DNA from: Oscillospiraceae bacterium
Lineage (GTDB): Bacteria > Bacillota > Clostridia > Oscillospirales > CAG-272
DNA length: 64,000 nucleotides
Direction: 5' to 3'
Assembly: GCA_015063795.1 (NCBI GenBank)
Contig: SVTL01000007.1
Coordinates: 12,600 to 76,599, forward strand
The notes beneath the pieces are model-generated. The model did no database searches, was not told the origin of the DNA, and saw only the letters and a program-made list of their open reading frames with translations. Made by a program: the position numbers and the translations under genes. Of this stretch, positions 2,899 to 24,111 are shown piece by piece; the stretch's first letter is position 1, and every line of letters begins with the position of its first letter.

Positions 2899-4155
2899 TT
2901 ATCGGAGGAGAGAAGCGAGGGGTTCGATGTCGTTGATGTCAACCTCGGTCTGCTCGCTGGTCTGCATGTTTTTCAGCTGTGCCTTGCCGCTTTCGATCTC
3001 GCTGTCGCCTAAGATCAGCGTGAAGCGGGCGTGCTTTTTGTCGGCATATTTCATCTGCGCTTTCAGGCTTCTGCCGACCAGATCGGTCTCGGTGTAAAGC
3101 GCCTGCTTGCGGAGAGAGGAGACGATCTTGGCTGCCTTTTCCACGGCTGCGCTGCCCATGGGGGCGATGTAGAGGGCGGGAGCATTGTCCTCGGTGATCT
3201 CCACGCCGTTCAGCTTCATGGCGAGGATGAGACGGGTGATACCGGTGGCAAAGCCGATGCCGGGCAGGGAAGGACCGCCGATCTCGGAGATCAGCCCGTC
3301 GTAACGTCCGCCTCCGCAGATGGTGCTCTGAGCGCCGATGGAGGGGCAGATGAATTCGAACACGGTACGGGTGTAGTAATCGAGGCCGCGGACGATGCGG
3401 GTGTCGATGTCATAGGCAATGCCGTGGGCGTCAAGCAGCTTTTTCAGCGTTTCGAAGTGGTCGCGGCAGTCATCGCAGAGGTAGTCGAGCATGACGGGTG
3501 CGTCTTTGCCGATCTCGCCGCAGATGGGGCTCTTGCAGTCGAGAATACGCATGGGGTTGGTCTGCAGACGTCCCTTGCAGGTGTCGCAGAGCTGCTCCTG
3601 TCTGGCGGCGAAGTACTCCTTCAGCGCCGCATGATAGCGCGCACGGCATTCGGGGCATCCGATGGAGTTGATGTGAAGCTGAGCGTCCTTGATGCCCAGC
3701 GAGCGGATCAGCGTGTCGGCCAGCGCGATGACCTCAGCGTCGGCAGCAGGGTGAGCTGCGCCGAACATTTCGGTGCCGAACTGGAAAAACTCACGGCTGC
3801 GTCCCGCCTGGGGCTTTTCGTAGCGGAAGCAGTTGATGAGGTAAAAGAGCTTTTTGGGCATGGTGTCCGAGCAGAGACCGTTTTCGATCAGGCTGCGGGC
3901 CACGCAGGCCGTTCCCTCGGGGCGGAGGGTGATGCTTCGTCCGTCGCGGTCGGTGAAGGAATACATCTCCTTCTGCACCACATCGGTGGTACCGCCCACA
4001 CCGCGGGAGAAGAGCTCGGTGGCTTCAAAGGTGGGGAAGCGGATCTCCTCAAACCCGAAGCGGGCCGAGATCTCGCGGGCTTTTTCTTCGATAAAGCGCC
4101 ATGTTGGCATTTCTGCGGGAAGGATATCCATCGTCCCGCGCATTTTCTGTATCAT
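2899..4155 (-). CDS. hisS: Histidine--tRNA ligase
   Basis: LRPEGTA, FRYEKPQAGRSREF, RGLDYYT, GGGRYD; ATG at 4155 (MIQKMRGT). Confidence 0.96.
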   Translation of the reverse strand: MIQKMRGTMDILPAEMPTWRFIEEKAREISARFGFEEIRFPTFEATELFSRGVGGTTDVVQKEMYSFTDRDGRSITLRPEGTACVARSLIENGLCSDTMPKKLFYLINCFRYEKPQAGRSREFFQFGTEMFGAAHPAADAEVIALADTLIRSLGIKDAQLHINSIGCPECRARYHAALKEYFAARQEQLCDTCKGRLQTNPMRILDCKSPICGEIGKDAPVMLDYLCDDCRDHFETLKKLLDAHGIAYDIDTRIVRGLDYYTRTVFEFICPSIGAQSTICGGGRYDGLISEIGGPSLPGIGFATGITRLILAMKLNGVEITEDNAPALYIAPMGSAAVEKAAKIVSSLRKQALYTETDLVGRSLKAQMKYADKKHARFTLILGDSEIESGKAQLKNMQTSEQTEVDINDIEPLASLLR

Positions 4156-4189
4156 AAAAACGTCCGTCCTTGTTCTTGATTTATCTTTT

Positions 4190-4218
4190 ATTTTACCACA
4201 CCGTTCGGTAAATTTCAA
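4190..4218 (-). promoter_or_regulatory. Sigma-A promoter of hisS-aspS
   Basis: TTGAAA-17 nt-TAAAAT with extended TG. Confidence 0.6.
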
Positions 4219-4314
4219 GAGATTCGGAAAACAATTCCATCGTTATTGAAAAGATTTTGATAAAAAAGGCGGTGAAAAAGCGAAAAAGCCGCTTTGAGCG
4301 GCGGACAGGATGCG

Positions 4315-4683
4315 CTATGGTTCCTTCTTTTTCTTTTTGAACAGCGTCAAAAGCCCCGACACGATCAAAAGCCAGCCGAAGATGCGCTTCACCCAAACAG
4401 GATCGATGGCCTTGAGAAGCGCAAAGCCGAGGAGGATGCCGACCGCACCGCAGAGCGAGACGATCGCGGCGAGTCGAAGACGGATCCGTCCCTTTTTGCC
4501 GTTGACGGCGGAGGCGGCCGCTGAGGAGAAAATGAAAAAAAGAAGGTTGGTGCCCTGCAGCATCAGATGGGGTTGGCTTGTGACCGCCGAGAGGTAGATG
4601 ACAAGCAGTCCGCCCCCTCCGATGCCAAGCCCCGACAGCGCGGCGATGAGCGCGGGGACGAGCCCTTCAAGCAGAAGCATCAT
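4315..4683 (-). CDS. TauE/SafE (TSUP) family membrane protein, half-size
   Basis: LSGLGIGGGG, QGTNLLFF; hydrophobic; start overlaps the stop of the upstream paralog. Confidence 0.75.
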   Translation of the reverse strand: MMLLLEGLVPALIAALSGLGIGGGGLLVIYLSAVTSQPHLMLQGTNLLFFIFSSAAASAVNGKKGRIRLRLAAIVSLCGAVGILLGFALLKAIDPVWVKRIFGWLLIVSGLLTLFKKKKKEP

Positions 4684-5036
4684 GCCATCACCATGCGGAT
4701 GCCGCTGTACAACACCATGCAGGCGAAGAGCTTTTGAAGGAGCGAGGGCTTGATTTTTCCGAGCAGCAGAGCGCCGACCGCTCCTCCGACGGCGGCAGGG
4801 ACAAAGACCTGCGAGGAGAAGGAAAGATCGATCATCCCCTCCTTGAAATAGAGCACGGCGGTGAGCAGCGACATCAGAAAAATGCAGAAAACGGTGGTGG
4901 CAAAGACCTCGGTCTTCGACAGCGAAGGAATGCGCGAGAGCAGGAAGACCAGAACGATACCGCCGCCCGTACCGAGAAGACCGTTGAAAAAGCCGCCCAA
5001 AAGGGCGAAAAAGAGGATAAAAAGAAGGTTTCTCAC
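4680..5036 (-). CDS. TauE/SafE (TSUP) family membrane protein, half-size
   Basis: GFFNGLLGTGGG motif, about 4 hydrophobic segments. Confidence 0.75.
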   Translation of the reverse strand: MRNLLFILFFALLGGFFNGLLGTGGGIVLVFLLSRIPSLSKTEVFATTVFCIFLMSLLTAVLYFKEGMIDLSFSSQVFVPAAVGGAVGALLLGKIKPSLLQKLFACMVLYSGIRMVMA

Positions 5037-5173
5037 GAAAGTTGCTCCAAAATTCTATTGTATTTTTGATAAAAATATGGTACAATGATTAAATAAGGAA
5101 TAGAATGAAACGTAAAAGCAGGGCTCGGAGAGACCAGACATGGGACGTCCGGGCGAAAAAGGAGTGTTGCGTT

Positions 5174-6007
5174 TTGAATATAGTATCCGCTGTTCTGTTC
5201 GGTATCATGCAGGGCATCGCCGAATTTCTCCCCATCTCCAGCTCGGGGCATCTGGCCATCCTGCACAGCTTTTTTGATATCGGCTTTGACAGCACGCTGA
5301 CCTTTGATGTGATGCTCCATCTGGGAACGCTGATCGCGGTGGTCATCGTCTATTTCCGCGACCTCTGTGCGCTGGTCCCTGCCGCCTTTTCGCTGCTGGG
5401 CAAGGTGTTCAGGAAAAAGTGGAAGCTGGCCGACTATACCGTCGATGAGCGGCTGGTGCTCTTTCTTGTCATCGCCTGCCTGCCTCTGATCGCGGCCGCG
5501 TTTATCAACGACTATGTGGAGATCCTCAGCAGCTACACCAAGGTGGTGGGCGGCATTCTGATTGTCAACGGCTTTGTTCTGTTCGTGTCCGACCGCATCG
5601 GCAAGGGGGGCAAAAACGTGGAAAAGACCACGCCTCTGAATGCTTTTCTGGTCGGTTTGTGCCAGATGTGCGCCATCCTGCCCGGACTTTCCCGCTCGGG
5701 CTCAACCATCACGGGCGGTCTTCTGCAGGGCTTTGACCGCGACTACGCCGTGAAGTTTTCCTTCCTGCTGTCCATTCCCGCCATTGTGGGCGCCAACATC
5801 TTCGTGCTGCCCGATATGCTCGACGAGATCGCCGCTGCCCCCGCCCCCTCCGAGCTTCTTCTGCCTGCGCTGGTCGGCATTGTGTCGGCTATGCTGGCCG
5901 GCATCGCCGCGATGAAGCTGCTCGTTTACATTTCCAAGCATTCCAACTTCCGCCTGTTCGGCTATTACTGCATTGCAGTCGGCCTGCTGACGGTGATCTT
6001 CGGATAA
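5174..6007 (+). CDS. uppP: Undecaprenyl-diphosphate phosphatase
   Basis: QGIAEFLPISSSGH, PGLSRSGSTI, FSFLLSIP; TTG start after GGAG. Confidence 0.93.
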   Translation: MNIVSAVLFGIMQGIAEFLPISSSGHLAILHSFFDIGFDSTLTFDVMLHLGTLIAVVIVYFRDLCALVPAAFSLLGKVFRKKWKLADYTVDERLVLFLVIACLPLIAAAFINDYVEILSSYTKVVGGILIVNGFVLFVSDRIGKGGKNVEKTTPLNAFLVGLCQMCAILPGLSRSGSTITGGLLQGFDRDYAVKFSFLLSIPAIVGANIFVLPDMLDEIAAAPAPSELLLPALVGIVSAMLAGIAAMKLLVYISKHSNFRLFGYYCIAVGLLTVIFG

Positions 6008-6028
6008 AGACAAGGAGACGCAAGCACC

Positions 6029-8767
6029 ATGCCTCAGAAAAAAACAACAACCGAAGCGAAGAAAAAGAGCGCGTCGGCTCCCGAGAAGAAGACGGCCGCG
6101 AAAAAAACGGCTCCTGCCAAAAAGGAGACGTCTGTTAAACATGCAACGGCCGCGATGCCGCTCAAGGAGAAAAAAGCGCCGAACCCCGACAGCGTGTTCA
6201 ACCGCGTGATGCCCTATATTCTCATGATTGTGGCGCTGTTTGTCGCCGTCTGCTTCTTGATGAGCGGTATGACAGGCAGTGTGGGCGGCGCCATCCGCAT
6301 CGTGCTGTACGGCCTGTTTTCCACCGCCGCCTGGTTTGTGCCGGTGGTGATCGCCATTGAGGCGGTCTGCTGGAAGAAGGACGTGGAGCGAGGAGAGGTC
6401 ACCTCCAAGTGGATCTTCGCGCTGGTGGTGGTCACCTTCATCGCCGTGCTGATGCACGTGTTCTATGTGCAGTCCAACGGCATTCCCTCCGGCGAAGTCA
6501 GCTTCAATGTCAAAGAACTGTGGCAGATGGGCATCGGCTCAGAGGAGGTCTCCCGCATGGGCGGAGGCGTTCTGGGCGGATTGATCGCCGCTCTTCTGCT
6601 GCGTCTGATCGGCATCGCGGGCACGCTGATCGTGTCCATCGCGCTGCTGTTTACCTTCACGGTCTTTCTCTTCGGCCTCACCCCCCGTGCGCTGGGCATT
6701 TACATCGCTTACTATTTCCACAAGAAGCGTGAGGAGAGTGCGAAAAAGCGCGCCGAGGAGAACGAGCGTCTGAAGCCCTATTATACGCCTGTCCGCCGCG
6801 ACAAGGATTGGGACGAGCCGACAAGCGATTCCGGGCATGAAACGGCGGAGGAGCCTGCCGCAAAGGACAAGCCCAAAAAGAAAAAGCCGGTCGACCGCAT
6901 CGATACGCTGGAGGAGCCGGAGGACCTGCCCCCCTTTGATATCGACGTGGATCCCTTTGAGGAAAAAGAGGAGGAGGAAGAAACAGAGCCGCTTCCCGCC
7001 TCGGATTATACGCCCGCTTCTCCCATCGCCGAGTTTATTCCCATGGAGGAGGAGCCTGAGGTCCGCAACGAGCTGAAGGAGGTCTTCGGCGGCGAGCGCA
7101 GACAGAGCATTCCCGCAACGGCGGCTGCATCGGCTGTTCCTTCCGCAGCGGAGGCGGCGGTGTCGGCTGTTCCCGATGCGGCCGAGCTGGAGCTGATGGT
7201 GGAGCGCAAGAGACTGTCCGAGCTTGAAGCGGAAAAGAAGGAAGCGGAAAATGCTCCCGAGGAAAAGGAGCCTGTCCGCGAATATGTCTTCCCCCCCATC
7301 AGCCTTCTGAACATCAAAAACGAGCCGCAGAATGTGGACATCAGCGAGGAGCTGCACAAAAACGCCGTGAAGCTGGTGGAAACGCTGGCCAGCTTTAAGG
7401 TGCGAACCCGCGTGGTCAACGTGTCGCGAGGCCCCACGGTCACACGGTATGAGCTGGTTCCCGAGGAGGGCATCCGCGTTCGCTCCATCGCCAACCTGGT
7501 GGACGATATCGCGCTGAATCTGGCCACCACGGGCGTGCGCATCGAGGCGCCGATCCCCGGCAAGAGCGCGGTGGGCATTGAGGTGCCGAACCGCATCAAG
7601 GAGACGGTGTATCTGCGCGAGCTGATCGAGAAAACAACGTTCAAGCAGGCGGCAAGCAGGCTGAACGTGGTCTTGGGCAAAAGCGTGGCCGGCGAGCCGA
7701 TCTATCTGGACATCGCCAAAATGCCCCACCTGCTGATCGCGGGTGCCACGGGTATGGGCAAATCGGTGTGCATCAACACCATGATCATCAGCCTTCTCTA
7801 CAAAGCCACCCCCGATGAGGTGAAGATGATCCTCATCGACCCGAAAAAGGTCGAGTTCAGCATGTACAACGGCATTCCCCATCTGCTGGTGCCGGTGGTG
7901 AGCGATCCGAAGAAGGCGGCCGGCTCTCTGCACTGGGCGGTCAACGAGATGGAGCGCCGCTTTGAAATGATCGAGGACGTGGGCGTCCGCGATGTGATGA
8001 GCTACAACAAGATCACCGAGGGGGATCCCGAAAAAGAGAGACTTCCCCAGATCGTCATCGTCATCGACGAGCTGGCCGATCTGATGATGACCGCTCCCGA
8101 CGACGTGGAGGATTCCATCTGCCGTCTGGCACAGAAGGCGAGAGCGGCGGGTATGCATCTGGTCATCGGTACCCAGCGTCCGTCGGTGGACGTGGTCACA
8201 GGTCTGATCAAGGCCAACGTGCCGTCCCGTATCGCCTGCACCATGGCCTCGCAGGTGGACTCCCGTACCATTCTGGACGTGGCGGGTGCGGAAAAGCTGA
8301 TCGGTAAGGGCGATATGCTCTATTCCCCCGTCGGCTTCAACAAGCCCATGCGTGTGCAGGGTGCGTTCGTCAGCGACTCCGAGGTGGAGAGCGTGGTGCA
8401 GTTCCTGAAGAGTGCCTGCGGCACCTGCGAATACAACGACGATGTGATGGCGCAGATCGACAAGGAAGCCGCTCGCTGCGGCATGGGCAAGAAGGGAAGC
8501 GGAGCATCGCCGGATATGGACGATGAGGACATGGAGAGCGATCCCATGCTCCGCCCGGCTCTGGAGCTGGCCGTGGAAAGCGGCAAGATCTCCACCAGCC
8601 TGATCCAGCGGCGTCTCTCTCTCGGCTATGGTCGTGCGGCCAAGCTGATCGATAAAATGCAGATCTTAGGATATGTCAGCCCTCCCGACGGTCAGAAGCC
8701 GCGGACGGTGCTGATCACAAAGCAGCAGTACATGGAAATGGTGCTGAAAAAAGACGATTTTGAGTGA
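6029..8767 (+). CDS. ftsK: DNA translocase FtsK/SpoIIIE
   Basis: N-terminal TM segments; PHLLIAGATGMGKS, IDELADLMM, QRPSVDV; gamma domain STSLIQRRLSLGYGRAAKLID. Confidence 0.95.
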   Translation: MPQKKTTTEAKKKSASAPEKKTAAKKTAPAKKETSVKHATAAMPLKEKKAPNPDSVFNRVMPYILMIVALFVAVCFLMSGMTGSVGGAIRIVLYGLFSTAAWFVPVVIAIEAVCWKKDVERGEVTSKWIFALVVVTFIAVLMHVFYVQSNGIPSGEVSFNVKELWQMGIGSEEVSRMGGGVLGGLIAALLLRLIGIAGTLIVSIALLFTFTVFLFGLTPRALGIYIAYYFHKKREESAKKRAEENERLKPYYTPVRRDKDWDEPTSDSGHETAEEPAAKDKPKKKKPVDRIDTLEEPEDLPPFDIDVDPFEEKEEEEETEPLPASDYTPASPIAEFIPMEEEPEVRNELKEVFGGERRQSIPATAAASAVPSAAEAAVSAVPDAAELELMVERKRLSELEAEKKEAENAPEEKEPVREYVFPPISLLNIKNEPQNVDISEELHKNAVKLVETLASFKVRTRVVNVSRGPTVTRYELVPEEGIRVRSIANLVDDIALNLATTGVRIEAPIPGKSAVGIEVPNRIKETVYLRELIEKTTFKQAASRLNVVLGKSVAGEPIYLDIAKMPHLLIAGATGMGKSVCINTMIISLLYKATPDEVKMILIDPKKVEFSMYNGIPHLLVPVVSDPKKAAGSLHWAVNEMERRFEMIEDVGVRDVMSYNKITEGDPEKERLPQIVIVIDELADLMMTAPDDVEDSICRLAQKARAAGMHLVIGTQRPSVDVVTGLIKANVPSRIACTMASQVDSRTILDVAGAEKLIGKGDMLYSPVGFNKPMRVQGAFVSDSEVESVVQFLKSACGTCEYNDDVMAQIDKEAARCGMGKKGSGASPDMDDEDMESDPMLRPALELAVESGKISTSLIQRRLSLGYGRAAKLIDKMQILGYVSPPDGQKPRTVLITKQQYMEMVLKKDDFE

Positions 8768-18030: not shown

Positions 18031-18106
18031 GGTGGGCCATCAAGGACTCGAACCTTGGACCGACCGGTTATGAGCCGGTAGCTCTAACCAACTGAGCTAA
18101 TGGCCC
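18030..18106 (-). tRNA. tRNA with CAU anticodon, most likely tRNA-Ile2 (lysidine-modified)
   Basis: GGGCCATTAGCTCAGTTGGTTAGAGCTACCGGCTCATAACCGGTCGGTCCAAGGTTCGAGTCCTTGATGGCCCACCA: cloverleaf, encoded CCA, GGCTCATAACC arm typical of Firmicute Ile2. Confidence 0.9.
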
Positions 18107-18260
18107 GCAGTGTATGTTATCTGCGCGAAGTTTATTTTATCACAAAAGATCCTTTTTGTAAAGAGATTTTTGAAAAAAGATTTCCTTTTCCGCGATCCCT
18201 TGAAAAAAAGGCGGAAGTGTGATAGAATACAGAAAAAGGATGATCGGGAGGTTGAGTGGG

Positions 18261-18773
18261 ATGAGACTGTTTGTGGCGCTTCCGTTTCCGGAGGATGTGA
18301 AAAATAGGCTGATGAAGACCGGGCAGGAGCTGTTGGCATCCTGCCGCTCGGCGAACCTGACCAAGAAAGAGAATCTCCATCTCACGCTGGCATTCATCGG
18401 TGAGACAAATGACCACCGCTCTGCCATCCGTGCGCTGTCCGGCATTGAGCAGAGCGCCTTTTCGCTGACGTTAAAGGGAAGCGGACACTTCGGCGATCTG
18501 TATTGGGTGGGGGTGGAGAAAAACGAAGCCCTGCTACAGCTGATGAAAAAAACGCAGACTTCCCTCCGCACCGCCGGCTTTCCCATCGAGCAGAGGGAGA
18601 ACATCCCTCATGTGACCATCGCCCGACGCGTGGAGACCGACCGTCCGCCGAAAATCGCCTTTGACGAAATCACCTTCCCCTGCCACGCCTTCCACCTGAT
18701 GGTCTCCGAGCGCATCGGCGGGAAATTGACCTACCGCAGTCTTTACCGAAAGGATCTGACACCTCTATGCTGA
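18261..18773 (+). CDS. thpR: RNA 2',3'-cyclic phosphodiesterase (2H family)
   Basis: MRLFVAL start and two HxT motifs (LHLTLAFIG, PHVTIAR). Confidence 0.88.
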   Translation: MRLFVALPFPEDVKNRLMKTGQELLASCRSANLTKKENLHLTLAFIGETNDHRSAIRALSGIEQSAFSLTLKGSGHFGDLYWVGVEKNEALLQLMKKTQTSLRTAGFPIEQRENIPHVTIARRVETDRPPKIAFDEITFPCHAFHLMVSERIGGKLTYRSLYRKDLTPLC

Positions 18774-19330
18774 CCAACATGACCTTTGACGCCTTTGATG
18801 AATTTTTTGACATTCTTTCCGCCTCTTTTCCCAAGGAGGAGTACCGTCCGTATGCCGCGCAGAAGCGGCTGTTTGATAAGGCCGAGTACGGCATCCTTAT
18901 CCTGCCTTATGCGGACGTGGCAGAGACCAACGCCGACGGCAAGACCATCGCCGCTTTTCTCGCCCTCTGGGATTTCGGCACCTTTGCTTACCTGGAGCAT
19001 TTTGCCGTTCGGAGCGAGCTTCGGTCGATGGGACTGGGCGCGCGCCTGCTGAAGGAGGCAGGGGAGAGACTGAAAAAGCCGCTGGTGCTGGAATGCGAGC
19101 CTCACGGTGCCAACGAAATGGCCGACCGCCGCATCGCCTTTTATGAGCGGAACGGCTTTGTTCTCAACGAGTATCCCTACATCCAGCCGTCCATGGGGGA
19201 GGGAAGAGATCCCATTCCGCTGATGCTGATGACGTCGCCCTCTGCCATCGATGAGGAAACCTTTGCTTTTTACCGCGGCACGCTTTACGAAAAAGTGTAC
19301 GAAACCCTTGACAAAAAAGAGAGGGTATGA
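18767..19330 (+). CDS. GNAT family N-acetyltransferase
   Basis: LEHFAVRSELRSMGLG, RRIAFYERNGF. Confidence 0.85.
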   Translation: MLTNMTFDAFDEFFDILSASFPKEEYRPYAAQKRLFDKAEYGILILPYADVAETNADGKTIAAFLALWDFGTFAYLEHFAVRSELRSMGLGARLLKEAGERLKKPLVLECEPHGANEMADRRIAFYERNGFVLNEYPYIQPSMGEGRDPIPLMLMTSPSAIDEETFAFYRGTLYEKVYETLDKKERV

Positions 19331-19336
19331 TAGAAT
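19308..19336 (+). promoter_or_regulatory. Sigma-A promoter of the T-box/cocE/valS transcript
   Basis: TTGACA-17 nt-TAGAAT with extended TG. Confidence 0.8.
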
Positions 19337-19344
19337 GGAAGAAA

Positions 19345-19600
19345 GGCAAAGACGAGGAGTAGTAGCTTCCCAACCCTTTTTTCAGAGAGCCGCCGTCGGT
19401 GGGAGAGCGGTAAAGGATGGAATGCGAAGTAGCCTCCGAGCCCCGGCCCGAACGAGTTTTCTCTTCAGTAGGCGTCGGCGTGTGCGCCCGTTACAGCGCG
19501 AGACGGTTTTTTGCTGTCGCAGAGTGCGCCGCAAGGCGAAAATGGGTGGTACCGCGCAAGAATTTGCGTCCTGTTTTGAAAAGAAACGGGGCGTTTTTTG
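19345..19600 (+). ncRNA. T-box riboswitch, valine specifier
   Basis: AGTA, CAGAGAG and GGTGGGAG stem I elements; GAA-GTA specifier (GTA at 19429-19431); T-box AATGGGTGGTACCGCG at 19541-19556; terminator GCGTCCTGTTT...AAACGGGGCGTTTTTT. Confidence 0.9.
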
Positions 19601-19627
19601 TTTGCCCCGAAATGATGGAGGTTTAAT

Positions 19628-21262
19628 ATGTATACCTGCAAAGAGACCTACTGGCCCTGCCGCGACGGGGTGAAGATCTACACCAAGATCTATCTGCCGG
19701 CCGAGGAGGGGACGTTTCCCACGGTTTTGATCCGCACACCTTATGACAGTGTCCCTTCTTTCAACGAGGATTATGAAATTGCCCTGCGCAAGCATTATCT
19801 GGACGGTGGCTATGCGCTGGTGGTCCAGCACTGCCGCGGCACCTACAACAGCGAGGGTGAATTTTCTGCCACCATGCAGGAGCGGAACGACGGTCTGGAT
19901 GCGCTGGAGCACATCCGTCAGATGCCCTCTTACAACGGTGAGATCTTTCTGGACGGCACCAGCTACACCGCCACGGTCCATTTTGCCTATCTGGACACCA
20001 AGCCGCATGATGTAAAAGCGGCTATGTTCTGCGTTCAGCCCTGCATCCCCTATCTGAAGGAGTATGTGAACGGGCAGTTCAAGCATTCGCAGGTCACTGC
20101 CTGGCACGTGGCGCGCCGTGCTGTGAAGCAGCCTCTTCCCGAGGGAGAGGAGTACAAATTCCCTCACTATCTGAAAAAAGCCAAACCGATCAAAAATCTC
20201 TTCCCCATTTTGTTCGGGCGCGAGAATCCCGAATACACCAAGGATCTGATCCATCCCGATGCGCGCGATCCCTTCTGGAACGATCCGAATCAGGTTGGCG
20301 TTGTTTCCGACCAAATGGAGCGGCTTGAGATCCCGATCCTCTTCCGCGGCGGCTGGTATGATCCGTATGTAGAAGGTCTGGTACAGATGTGGGATCAGAT
20401 CCCGCCTGAAACCCGAAAGAAGTGCGGCCTGATCATCGGTCCCTGGGGACATTCGATGAAAATCAAGGAGCCCACGCCCATTCCGCTTCCGGGAACGCTG
20501 GTGGCCGAAAAGAATCTGTCGGTCAATTTCTTCGACCATGTCCGCAAGGGAACGCCCCTGTCCTTCGCTGAGGAGGGCAAGGTGAAATACTATGTGATGA
20601 ACGGCCGCGGATGGAAGACGGCAGACAGCCTGTCGGGTGTACTGACGAAAACCTTCTCCCTTTCCCAAGACGGTCTGCTGACCGAGGAACAGGCTGAGGC
20701 AGGCGAACGCTCGTATGCCTATGATCCCGAAAATCCTCCGTCCATGCCAGGCTCCATCCACTCGCTGAACACCACCTACGGCGGCTTTTGCGAGATTCCC
20801 GCCTTCGAGCGTTCGGATATCCTTTCCTTTGCGAGCCGTCCCATCGAAGAGCCGATGCTGCTCGACGGCTGCTCCGAATTGACGCTGAAAGTCAGAAGCG
20901 ACTGCGAGGATACCGCCTTCTTAGCCCGCGTGAACGCTCTCACCGCCGACGGCAAAAAGCTTCTCTTCGGCGAAACGATCACCGCCCTCCGCTATGAGCT
21001 GGGGGACTACACACCCAACGAAGAGGTCACCATCACGCTGCGCTTTTCGGCCGGTGCCTGGCTCTTCCATAAGGGCGACCGTCTGGTTCTGGATATCGCT
21101 TCGGCCAATTTCCCCGTCTTCCATGCCCATACCAACACCGCCGAGCCCTGGTATGAGGCGGAGGAGACCAAGGTGGCGCACAACACCGTCATCTGCGGTG
21201 CATCCTGCCTGAAGGTGCCGCTTTCTCCCTGCGCGGAGGATGCCTTTGAAGGCAAGCGGTAA
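19628..21262 (+). CDS. CocE/NonD family serine hydrolase (peptidase S15/amino-acid ester hydrolase-like), no signal peptide
   Basis: RDGVKI, LIRTPYD, RGTYNSEG, nucleophile GTSY, GGWYD, GPWGH; C-terminal jelly-roll domain. Confidence 0.9.
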   Translation: MYTCKETYWPCRDGVKIYTKIYLPAEEGTFPTVLIRTPYDSVPSFNEDYEIALRKHYLDGGYALVVQHCRGTYNSEGEFSATMQERNDGLDALEHIRQMPSYNGEIFLDGTSYTATVHFAYLDTKPHDVKAAMFCVQPCIPYLKEYVNGQFKHSQVTAWHVARRAVKQPLPEGEEYKFPHYLKKAKPIKNLFPILFGRENPEYTKDLIHPDARDPFWNDPNQVGVVSDQMERLEIPILFRGGWYDPYVEGLVQMWDQIPPETRKKCGLIIGPWGHSMKIKEPTPIPLPGTLVAEKNLSVNFFDHVRKGTPLSFAEEGKVKYYVMNGRGWKTADSLSGVLTKTFSLSQDGLLTEEQAEAGERSYAYDPENPPSMPGSIHSLNTTYGGFCEIPAFERSDILSFASRPIEEPMLLDGCSELTLKVRSDCEDTAFLARVNALTADGKKLLFGETITALRYELGDYTPNEEVTITLRFSAGAWLFHKGDRLVLDIASANFPVFHAHTNTAEPWYEAEETKVAHNTVICGASCLKVPLSPCAEDAFEGKR

Positions 21263-21316
21263 AAAACGGCAGCAAACGAGAAAAATAAAAAATATAACAT
21301 AGATCAGGAGATACTC

Positions 21317-23947
21317 ATGAAAAAAGAACTTGCCAAAACCTATTCTCCCGCCGAGATCGAGGACAGACTCTATGCCTGGTGGGAGGAGCAGGGGTATTTT
21401 ACCCCCGAGATGGACAAGGATAAAAAGCCCTTCTCCATCGTCATTCCCCCTCCGAACGTGACCGGTCAGCTGCACATGGGTCACGCGCTGAACAACACCT
21501 TCCAGGATATCATCATCCGCACCAAGCGTATGCAGGGCTATTCCACGCTGTGGGTGCCCGGTACCGACCACGCCGGCATTGCCACCCAGATCAAGGTGGA
21601 GGCCAACCTCCGCGAGCAGAAGGGACTCATGCGCCAGGACATTGGCCGCGAGGAGTTTTTGAAGCTTGTTTGGGAATGGAAGCAGGAGTACGGCGGACGC
21701 ATCATCAACCAGCTCAAGAAGCTGGGCTCCTCCTGCGACTGGTCGAGAGAGCGCTTCACCATGGACGAGAGCCTGTCGAGAGCGGTCCGCAAGACCTTTG
21801 TCAACCTGTACAACAAGGGACTGATCTACCGCGGTCTCCGCATCATCAACTGGTGCCCTCACTGCCTCACCGCCCTCAGTGACGCTGAGGTAGAGCACAA
21901 GGAGATCGGCGGCGCCTTCTGGCACATCCGCTATCCCGTCAAGGACAGCGACGAGTCGGTGATCATCGCCACCACCCGTCCCGAGACCATGCTGGGCGAC
22001 TCGGCTGTGGCCGTTCACCCCGAGGACGAGCGCTATCAGCACCTGATCGGCAAAACGCTGATCCTGCCTCTGGTCGGCCGAGAGATCCCTGTTGTGGCCG
22101 ACGATTACGTGGACCGCGAGTTCGGCACGGGCTGTGTGAAGATCACGCCCTGCCACGACCCCAACGACTTTGAGATCGGTCAGCGCCACAACCTGGAGAT
22201 GATTTCGGTGTTCGGCGAGGACGCCAAGATCAACGAAAAGGGCGGCCGCTATGAGGGACTGGATCGCTTCGAGGCGAGAAAGGTCATCGTGGAGGATCTG
22301 AAGAAGGAAGGGGATCTGGTCAAGATCGAGGAGCATTCGCACGCGGTCGGTCACTGCTACCGCTGCGGCACCATCGTCGAGCCGACGGCCTCCAAGCAGT
22401 GGTTCGTCAAGATGGAGCCTCTGGCCAAGCCCGCCATCGAGGTGGTCAAGGACGGCGAGATCCAGTATATTCCCGACCGCTTCAGCAAGATCTACCTCAA
22501 CTGGATGGAAAACATTCACGACTGGTGCATTTCCCGTCAGCTGTGGTGGGGACACCGCATTCCCGCCTTCTATTGCTCCGACTGCGGCGAATTGATCGTC
22601 AGTGAGACCGATGTTCACACCTGCCCCAAGTGCGGGTCCAAGAACATGAAGCAGGACGAGGACGTGCTGGACACCTGGTTCTCCTCCGCTCTGTGGCCCT
22701 TCTCCACGCTGGGCTGGCCGGACAAGACCGAGGAGCTTGACTACTACTATCCCACCAACGTTCTGGTCACCGCTTACGACATCATCACCTTCTGGGTTTC
22801 AAAAATGATCTTCATGGCGCTGGAAAATGTGGAACAAATTCCGTTCCCGCGCGTCTTTATACATGGATTGGTCAGAGATGCCCAGGGACGCAAGATGTCC
22901 AAGTCGCTCGGAAACGGCATCGATCCGCTGGAGGTCATCAAGGTCTACGGCGCCGACGCTCTCCGCTTTGCTCTGGCCACGGGCAACTCCCCCGGCAACG
23001 ATATGCGCTTCTCGGATGAAAAGATCGAGGCCGCGCGCAACTTCAACAACAAGATCTGGAATGCCGCCCGTTTCATTCTGATGAATCTGGACATCGATTC
23101 CTGCCAGCTTCCCGCCTCGGACAAGCTGACGCTGGCCGACAAGTGGATTTTGACCAAGTACAACCGCCTGGTCAAGGAAGTGGTGGCCAACATCGACAAT
23201 TACGAAATCGGAATTGCGCTGGGCAAGCTGTATGACTTCATCTGGGATGTGTTCTGCGACTGGTACATTGAGCTGACCAAGAACCGTCTCTCCGACAAGG
23301 GCAGCGAGGACAACGCTGTGGCGCAGAACACCATCTGCTGGGTCTTCTCCAATACCCTCAAGCTGCTGCATCCCTATATGCCCTTCATCACCGAGGAGAT
23401 CTGGCAGTCGATGCCTCATGAGGGCGAAAGCATCATGATCAGCGAATACCCGACCTATGATCCTGCTCTCGACTTCGCTTCCGATGAAGCCGAGATGGAG
23501 CGTATCCTCACGGCCATCAAGGCCATCCGCAACCGCCGCGCCGAGATGAACGTGCCTCCGTCCCGCAAGGCCAAGCTGGTCATTGCCTCGGCTTACGGCG
23601 ACACCTTCAACGAAAGCGCATCGCCCTACTTCCTGCGTCTGGCTTCGGCCTCGTCCGTGGAGTATGATCCCGCTTACGCCGACGAAAAGGCGGTGCAGAT
23701 CATCACCGACAGCGCCAACCTCTTCATTCCCCTGGCCGACATGATCGACCTGGACAAGGAGAAGGAGCGTTTGAACAAGGAAAAGGCCAACACCGAGGGC
23801 GAGATCAAGCGCCTGGAGGGCAAGCTGTCCAACGCAGGCTTCACCGCCAAGGCACCCGCTGCCGTGGTGGAGGGCGAGAAAAACAAGCTGGCAGGCTACA
23901 AGGAAAAGCTGGCCGGCATCCTCAAGGCGATCGAACAGCTGGGCTGA
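21317..23947 (+). CDS. valS: Valine--tRNA ligase
   Basis: [31 protein letters not shown]-terminal coiled coil. Confidence 0.98.
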
Positions 23948-23979: not shown

Positions 23980-24018
23980 GGTGGGACTTGGGCAGAGAAA
24001 ACCCGTCCGAGTCCCACA
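23980..24018 (+). terminator. Strong hairpin after valS
   Basis: GTGGGACTTGGGC ... GTCCGAGTCCCAC. Confidence 0.55.
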
Positions 24019-24111
24019 TAGCCTTTGATAAGGCTTTGCTGTGTTTTTTGAGAAAACGGCAGAATTGTCTGTAGCATCCGAAAAAACACGGCTGAATGAA
24101 TGGAAAAAAAC

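Follow-up and report, generated by a model that had tools for sequence, protein, structure and literature searches.

A CocE/NonD-family hydrolase gene between a valine T-box leader and valS in an Oscillospiraceae genome

We analyzed a stretch of 64,000 nt, here called the window, from the genome of an Oscillospiraceae bacterium (assembly GCA_015063795.1, contig SVTL01000007.1, positions 12,600 to 76,599 of the forward strand). In this window, a valine T-box riboswitch is followed by a gene encoding a CocE/NonD-family serine hydrolase and then by valS, which encodes valine-tRNA ligase (ValRS). We consider it probable that this is an ordinary valine T-box-valS unit, that the hydrolase gene was inserted between the leader terminator and the ribosome-binding site of valS in one lineage, and that the regulation of the hydrolase is a by-product. 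Each part of the unit (switch, synthetase, and hydrolase family) is of a known kind, and their combination is a lineage-specific variant, limited to one species-level lineage. The features of the region are listed in Table 1.

Results

A complete valine T-box leader

A sequence-only reading of this region had described a promoter, a complete T-box leader with a GTA valine specifier, the T-box sequence GGTGGTACCGCG, and a terminator. It had also suggested running the Rfam T-box model and checking the specifier. The description held on each count. The leader matched RF00230 with 105.0 bits, above the gathering score of 93 (E = 3.9e-22), and the match covered model positions 1 to 219, the full model. 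The promoter was the sole site of such quality on the + strand between 18500 and 24500 in a consensus scan, and its -35 element sits within the 3' end of the upstream GNAT acetyltransferase gene.

The first two positions of the specifier are an invariant G and T in an alignment of 23 valS leaders (the window and 22 relatives). The third position is A, C, or T, with the leaders of the relatives reading GTA, GTC, or GTT. The equivalent aligned triplets of other T-boxes in the genome are UAC at tyrS, UUC at pheS, UGG at a trpB-like gene, and ACC at a thrS-like gene. These triplets are cognate to the downstream genes, and the rule by which the specifier was read is therefore valid in this genome. 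The tRNA-Val genes of the genome carry the anticodons UAC, CAC, and GAC, and the UGGU of the T-box bulge is complementary to the ACCA end of tRNA-Val(UAC). The 5' arm of the terminator overlaps the 3' strand of the antiterminator; the two share the stretch GCGUCC, which makes the folds mutually exclusive. This is the sole valine T-box among the ten T-box matches of the genome with a specifier read, a count that does not take in match C22. Judged by its sequence, the leader is a complete, cognate, class-I transcriptional valine T-box leader of valS.

Table 1. Predicted features of the valS region, with positions counted from the first letter of the window
Feature	Position	Strand	Details
tRNA, anticodon CAU	18033-18106	-	
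LigT/2'-5' RNA-ligase-like phosphoesterase gene	18219-18773	+	
GNAT acetyltransferase gene	18767-19330	+	Overlaps the phosphoesterase gene
Sigma-70-type promoter with extended -10 TG	19308-19336	+	TTGACA-17-TAGAAT; 11/12 matches; score 12.5
T-box leader: Stem I with specifier loop, Stem III, antiterminator	19340-19576	+	RF00230; homology to the valS leaders of 22 relatives
Specifier codon GUA (valine)	19429-19431	+	Loop reads GAA-GUA-G in the RF00230 alignment
T-box sequence GGTGGTACCGCG	19545-19556	+	UGGU at 19547-19550
Intrinsic terminator of the leader	19566-19604	+	12-bp stem, then T-run
Ribosome-binding site GGAGG of the hydrolase gene	19617-19621	+	Read from the sequence
CocE/NonD (peptidase S15) family serine hydrolase gene, 544 aa, product predicted cytoplasmic	19628-21262	+	Profiles, predicted fold
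Catalytic triad codons	Ser112 19961-19963; Asp245 20360-20362; His275 20450-20452	+	Alignment
A-rich spacer, 54 nt	21263-21316	+	Contains the valS ribosome-binding site AGGAG at 21306-21310
valS, valine-tRNA ligase, 876 aa	21317-23947	+	NF004349, TIGR00422
Two stable hairpins, then U-run	23980-24048	+	Minimum free energy -40.5 kcal/mol; z = -4.37; 0/200 shuffles as stable

The leader belongs to valS

We sampled the family with one genome per genus. valS was found in 41/41 genomes, and 29 of the valS loci were fetched. A T-box lies upstream on the valS strand in 22 of these 29 loci (by set, 12/12, 4/8, and 6/9), and alignment showed the leader of the window to be homologous to these 22 valS leaders. 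In the 22 loci, 20 to 235 nt separate the end of the T-box match from the start of valS (median 65, with start codons approximate), leaving no room for a gene between the two. The same distance in the window is 1,740 nt, and the start of the hydrolase gene, at 51 nt, occupies the usual position of valS. The gene order flanking valS in the relatives is too variable to fix the boundaries of an insertion.

The sequence-only reading had proposed a survey of relatives for the two arrangements, T-box-hydrolase-valS and T-box-valS. The second was present without an intervening gene in the 22 loci, and the first occurred in no other lineage within the reach of our searches, an outcome that the sequence-only reading had itself named as counting against its proposal. 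As these alignments indicate, the ancestral arrangement is a T-box directly 5' of valS, and the leader belongs to valS.

A predicted single transcription unit of hydrolase gene and valS

The identity of valS is clear from its equivalog scores (NF004349, 1272.4 against a cut-off of 704; TIGR00422, 1165.5 against 612.1). The encoded ValRS carries a match to the editing domain PF13603, and only one valS was found in the genome. The spacer between the hydrolase gene and valS resembles the A/T-rich stretch that separates the terminator from valS in relatives.

That valS follows the hydrolase gene by 54 nt with no evident hairpin or promoter between them had been stated from the sequence, and scans of the spacer and of the 450 nt 5' of valS agreed. 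From 19605 to 21317 on the + strand, a consensus scan for sigma-70 types detected neither a terminator-like nor a promoter-like site. The hydrolase-valS junction has no significant hairpin (z = -1.68 compared with shuffles) and no U-run. The best -35/-10 pair within 450 nt 5' of valS scores 7, compared with 12.5 for the leader promoter. For comparison, 400 random 450-nt stretches of coding sequence from the genome have a mean promoter score of 7.72, and 87.5% of them reach at least 7. Because signals for an internal promoter or terminator are lacking in these scans, valS would depend on transcription that runs through the hydrolase gene. The double hairpin 3' of valS, a putative terminator, probably closes the operon. 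Through co-transcription with the single, essential valS, the hydrolase gene would very probably be induced by valine starvation.

Two metatranscriptome runs yielded contigs that fall on the leader, on the hydrolase gene, and on valS, with a depth of 3 to 11 over the leader and the hydrolase gene, and one of these contigs covers the end of the GNAT gene into the leader. Because the RNA libraries may hold DNA, these contigs say nothing on transcription or co-transcription.

The hydrolase is an intact member of the CocE/NonD family

The product of the hydrolase gene had been described as a 544-aa hydrolase with an intact catalytic triad and without a signal peptide, and the profiles and the predicted structure bear out this description. 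The protein scored 232.9 bits with TIGR00976 (CocE_NonD; cut-off 66.3), 135 with Peptidase_S15 PF02129 (cut-off 23), and 58.3 with PepX_C PF08530 (cut-off 22.5). Ser112, Asp245, and His275 are unchanged throughout an alignment with 39 homologues. In the alignment with CocE, Ser112 corresponds to CocE Ser117, Asp245 to the D of GWYD, and His275 to the H of GPWSH. The alpha-amino-acid ester hydrolases bind the alpha-amino group of their substrates through an acidic cluster; the acidic pair that would come right behind the catalytic Asp appears to be missing from the hydrolase, which reads D-P-Y-V-E. The genome has no other clear S15-family gene.

The AlphaFold model, built with the 39 homologues, has a predicted local distance difference test score of 91 and a predicted template modeling score of 0.91. 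It contains an alpha/beta-hydrolase domain and a C-terminal jelly-roll fold. Residues 3 to 10 form a strand of the modeled catalytic domain, so a signal peptide would not fit the model. By sequence, the closest solved relatives are cocaine esterase (E = 1.3e-32) and, next, alpha-amino-acid ester hydrolases (E = 2e-17 to 4e-15). By predicted structure, the template modeling (TM) scores were 0.83 to 0.84 for CocE, 0.81 for the thaumarchaeal S15 aminopeptidase 4PF1, and 0.78 to 0.82 for the alpha-amino-acid ester hydrolases. We also considered X-Pro dipeptidyl peptidase (PepX) as an identity and rejected it: the protein has 544 residues compared with the approximately 760-aa build of PepX, and the TM scores were 0.62 to 0.67 when normalized to the query and 0.46 to 0.47 when normalized to the target, at 11 to 12% identity.

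Distribution and age of the hydrolase gene

Among 5.8 billion clustered proteins, the only cluster above 38% identity to the hydrolase is its own. This cluster holds three 544-aa variants that differ from one another by 1 to 6 residues and occur on 9, 2, and 1 contigs (12 in total). Single-protein scans of genome and metagenome contigs found no close relative, although records near the source genome may be excluded from these scans. A homologue is present in 2 of 36 same-family genomes and in 1 of 24 same-order genomes; the three have 32%, 31%, and, in a weak match over 118 residues, 33% identity.

We built a FastTree phylogeny of 109 homologues, from which loci with an open reading frame (ORF) call off the + strand or outside 480 to 620 aa were excluded. 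The hydrolase pairs with two proteins from Clostridia metagenome-assembled genomes (MAGs), with a support of 0.94. The two copies from relatives that were included in the tree are far away, at patristic distances of 3.3 to 3.6, compared with 2.2 for the nearest homologue.

The composition of the gene is average for the genome. Its GC content is 0.571 (46th percentile of 1078 long ORFs), its GC content at third codon positions is 0.721 (47th percentile), and its codon score lies at the 55th percentile. Its flanks carry no notable direct or inverted repeats that would mark a mobile element. This average composition and the lack of flanking repeats suggest that the insertion is not recent, or that the donor had a similar composition.

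The locus was also recovered outside the source genome. In two further DNA samples from other studies, contigs join GNAT to the leader and the hydrolase gene, and the hydrolase gene to valS, with 0 differences, and contigs of two RNA libraries carry a variant that is approximately 95% identical. Sixteen variants were listed for the hydrolase gene, in a count that leaves aside 40 further variant rows; of the 16, 14 are silent and 2 exchange similar residues (S44T and A402V). This mostly synonymous pattern points to purifying selection, and the hydrolase therefore appears to be functional.

The sequence-only reading had also raised a recent insertion that captured the leader. Insertion and capture are supported by the T-box-valS arrangement in 22 of the 29 relatives, the homologous leader, and the lack of a close relative of the hydrolase. 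The word "recent" finds no support, given the average composition and the mostly synonymous changes among strains. Joint arrival with the upstream GNAT gene was also considered and rejected. The GNAT protein of the window is unrelated to the GNAT neighbor at homologue locus L073 (E = 1.4), and its likeness to the GNAT neighbor at locus L092 is at the family level only (25% identity, E = 4e-07).

T-box control is not a property of the hydrolase clade

We examined the loci of homologues in two collections. An alignment-based scan provided 78 genome loci, taken from the best 80 of 244 relatives in species-representative genomes, and 80 metagenome loci, the best 80 of 114 relatives. The search for the T-box motif tolerated two mismatches and recovered 22/22 of the T-box-positive valS loci. 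Just 5' of the homologue on the gene strand, it found the motif at 0/78 genome loci and 0/80 metagenome loci, of which 76 and 65, respectively, have at least 300 nt upstream. Seven candidate loci were also examined with covariance scans, and a single T-box emerged, at locus L053; this T-box lies 3' of the hydrolase homologue and leads another gene. As the comparison of these loci indicates, T-box control is not a property of the hydrolase clade.

The neighbors of the homologues are mainly sugar-related enzymes and transporters. There was no synthetase and no recognizable valine-pathway gene among the 84 same-strand neighbors within 150 nt at the 78 genome loci. These neighbors include acetyl-xylan-esterase-like hydrolases (5), GFO/IDH/MocA oxidoreductases (5), glycoside hydrolases (GH2, GH20, GH95, and a piece of GH3), Mem_trans, MFS, and MatE transporters, S15 paralogues, isocitrate or isopropylmalate dehydrogenases (3), and aconitases (2). 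By analogy with these neighbors, the substrate of the hydrolase is most likely an acyl ester or peptide and not valine specific.

At L053, which is from a Clostridia MAG, the T-box (3473-3716, +; 83 bits) comes directly after the hydrolase homologue. It leads a gene (3796-6105, +) for a 769-aa protein with helix-turn-helix (HTH), cupin, and acyl-CoA-ligase parts, the same build as in a protein of the source genome described below.

Discussion

A model for the unit

We propose that transcription would begin at the strong promoter and that uncharged tRNA-Val(UAC) would pair both with the GUA specifier and with the UGGU of the T-box bulge. This pairing would stabilize the antiterminator, allowing the polymerase to pass the terminator. 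A single transcript would then carry the hydrolase gene together with valS, both preceded by strong ribosome-binding sites of their own, and would end at the hairpins 3' of valS. Because valS is single copy, essential, and without a promoter of its own in our scans, the hydrolase would always be made together with ValRS, and its level would rise when valine is short. Most simply, the starvation regulation of the hydrolase would be a by-product of where the gene landed.

Several observations weigh against this account. The hydrolase sits on a terminal branch of 0.98 in the tree, compared with a median of 0.25, which hints at a changed substrate. Residue 487 is Val in the hydrolase and Arg in all 108 other aligned homologues. 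This residue lies in a conserved C-terminal strand with the consensus I-R-V-D-I-S-S, in which the hydrolase has an Arg two residues before Val487. Val487 and the long branch could mean an altered substrate; across 81 highly conserved columns, the hydrolase differs from the clade consensus at 8 (median of the set 4, maximum 19). An intact gene of native composition, with a strong ribosome-binding site and predicted obligate expression with an essential gene, fits adaptive recruitment too. Two acyl-CoA-ligase fusions lie behind T-boxes in this genome, so T-box control has spread to salvage-type enzymes here. The genus is represented by a single genome in the collection, and the age of the insertion is bounded by strain divergence alone. 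A T-box is absent from 7 of the 29 valS loci of relatives, one of which had just 164 nt upstream; in the remaining T-box-negative loci, valS comes directly after another gene or after a plain promoter. Finally, none of the RNA-library contigs bridges 21262-21317, and one stops 22 nt beyond the hydrolase stop codon.

Alternative explanations

The sequence-only reading had suggested that the hydrolase releases valine or acts on aminoacyl esters, and our comparison gave this suggestion no support. In its broader form, the alternative is adaptive recruitment, in which the hydrolase would yield valine from esters, amides, or peptides, or would yield isobutyrate from esters for a branched-acid route. 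The gene is indeed behind a valine-specific switch, intact, and apparently under purifying selection. Alpha-amino-acid ester hydrolases and an aminopeptidase of the same fold belong to its family, branched-acid-type acyl-CoA-ligase fusions stand under Leu and Ile T-boxes in the same genome, and its long branch and the missing Arg, which is invariant in the other homologues, are hints of a new specificity. We nevertheless regard recruitment as unlikely. None of the 158 homologue loci is T-box linked, none of the 84 close neighbors at the 78 genome loci is a synthetase or a recognizable valine-pathway gene, and the arrangement is restricted to one species-level lineage. In addition, the nearest solved relative by both sequence and fold hydrolyzes the ester of a substrate that is not an amino acid. 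The source genome also has ilvC and ilvD, and therefore no obvious dependence on scavenged valine. The more specific proposal of hydrolytic scavenging under valine starvation in a gut anaerobe, with valine or isobutyrate (for reductive carboxylation) as the product and with Val487 and the long branch as marks of a substrate change, strikes us as distinctly unlikely.

Two separate units would also account for the gene order, if the T-box governed the hydrolase gene alone and valS had a promoter inside the 3' end of the hydrolase gene or in the spacer. The spacer is A/T-rich, the promoter scan covered sigma-70 types only, and the T-box-negative loci of relatives indicate that T-box control of valS is dispensable in the family. 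However, the best site before valS scores below the mean of random coding windows and below the leader promoter, the consensus scan gave no promoter, and no terminator follows the hydrolase stop codon. A start in the spacer would leave nearly no 5' leader ahead of the ribosome-binding site. Together, these points make two units very unlikely. A role in the translation apparatus, in which the hydrolase would work alongside ValRS to clear mis-acylated or excess aminoacyl esters (aminoacyl-tRNA or aminoacyl-adenylate by-products), is suggested by adjacency and co-regulation with valS only. It appears extremely unlikely, given that synthetases are missing from the 84 close neighbors of the homologues and that ValRS keeps its editing-domain match. 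We know of no CocE/NonD-family member that acts on tRNA.

Comparison with known systems

The upstream part of the unit is like the valine T-box valS leaders of Bacillota, with a promoter, Stem I with a GUN specifier, the T-box sequence, competing antiterminator and terminator folds, and valS as the regulated gene. Unlike the leaders of relatives, in which 20 to 235 nt precede valS, the window has a 1.6-kb hydrolase gene in that place. In Bacillus subtilis, the valS-folC operon is an example of valS behind a valine T-box. The cysE-cysS genes of B. subtilis sit behind a cysteine T-box, an arrangement common to related species, and CysE makes the precursor of the cognate amino acid, cysteine. As in cysE-cysS, the gene for an enzyme that is not a synthetase comes first after the leader here, and the synthetase gene comes next in the same operon. 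The two cases differ in that the hydrolase of the window has no recognizable link to valine and its arrangement is limited to one lineage.

The hydrolase resembles CocE of Rhodococcus (PDB 1JU3 and mutants) in its three-part build and in the positions of Ser, Asp, and His, although the identity is only 20 to 22% and CocE comes from another group of organisms. The alpha-amino-acid ester hydrolases 2B4K and 1MPX and the aminopeptidase 4PF1 are of the same family and fold (E = 2e-17 to 2e-10; TM 0.78 to 0.82) and are more distant from the hydrolase than CocE is.

In the article texts, T-boxes are described as regulating synthetase, biosynthesis, and transporter genes (PMC3766115, PMC7778990), and T-box specifiers have been used to assign functions to transporters and to genes of unknown function (TBDB, PMC7778990). 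The main text of Wels 2008 (PMC2494555) does not mention a hydrolase, peptidase, or esterase. The article text of Sun 2013 (PMC3766115) does not mention a hydrolase, peptidase, or amidohydrolase. A literature search that paired T-box riboswitches with CocE likewise gave no report; supplementary regulon tables were outside that search, and a case listed there is possible.

If the hydrolase gene was inserted as we propose, chance insertion can enlarge a riboswitch regulon. Any gene arriving downstream of a leader and ahead of its essential synthetase gene would gain starvation control at once, and here it would be hard to silence without damage to valS expression. The case warns against inferring function from the T-box specifier alone. 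If the hydrolase instead acts on valine-yielding substrates, T-box regulons would gain a hydrolytic scavenging arm beyond synthesis and uptake.

Local context and other T-boxes of the genome

The leader promoter directly adjoins the stop codon of the GNAT gene. This gene has no terminator behind it, so read-through into the leader is possible. A tRNA gene lies within approximately 200 nt of the valS T-box in three relatives; the phosphoesterase and GNAT genes may therefore be a second local insertion.

Two T-boxes elsewhere in the genome, scoring 94.6 and 92.2 bits, lead acyl-CoA-ligase fusions rather than synthetases. The T-box at C3:35909-36152 (-), with CUC (Leu) as the aligned specifier, leads C3:33287-35905 (the same as L125:1288-3906, -), which encodes an 872-aa protein with a xylose-isomerase-like TIM barrel and an AMP-binding domain. 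The T-box at C6:13579-13843 (-) leads the gene L126:1175-3646 (-), which encodes an 823-aa protein with HTH, cupin, and AMP-binding parts. The best NCBIfam match of this protein is MbcS, below the cut-off, and the specifier is AUC (Ile) or CUU (Leu).

A long T-box match at C28:409909-410345 (the same as L007:1501-1937, +) spans 437 nt and scores 68.5 bits, with the specifier CUC (Leu) and a large insert that resembles a second Stem I region. It precedes a PALP-family (threonine-dehydratase-like) gene approximately 8 kb upstream of ilvC-ilvD.

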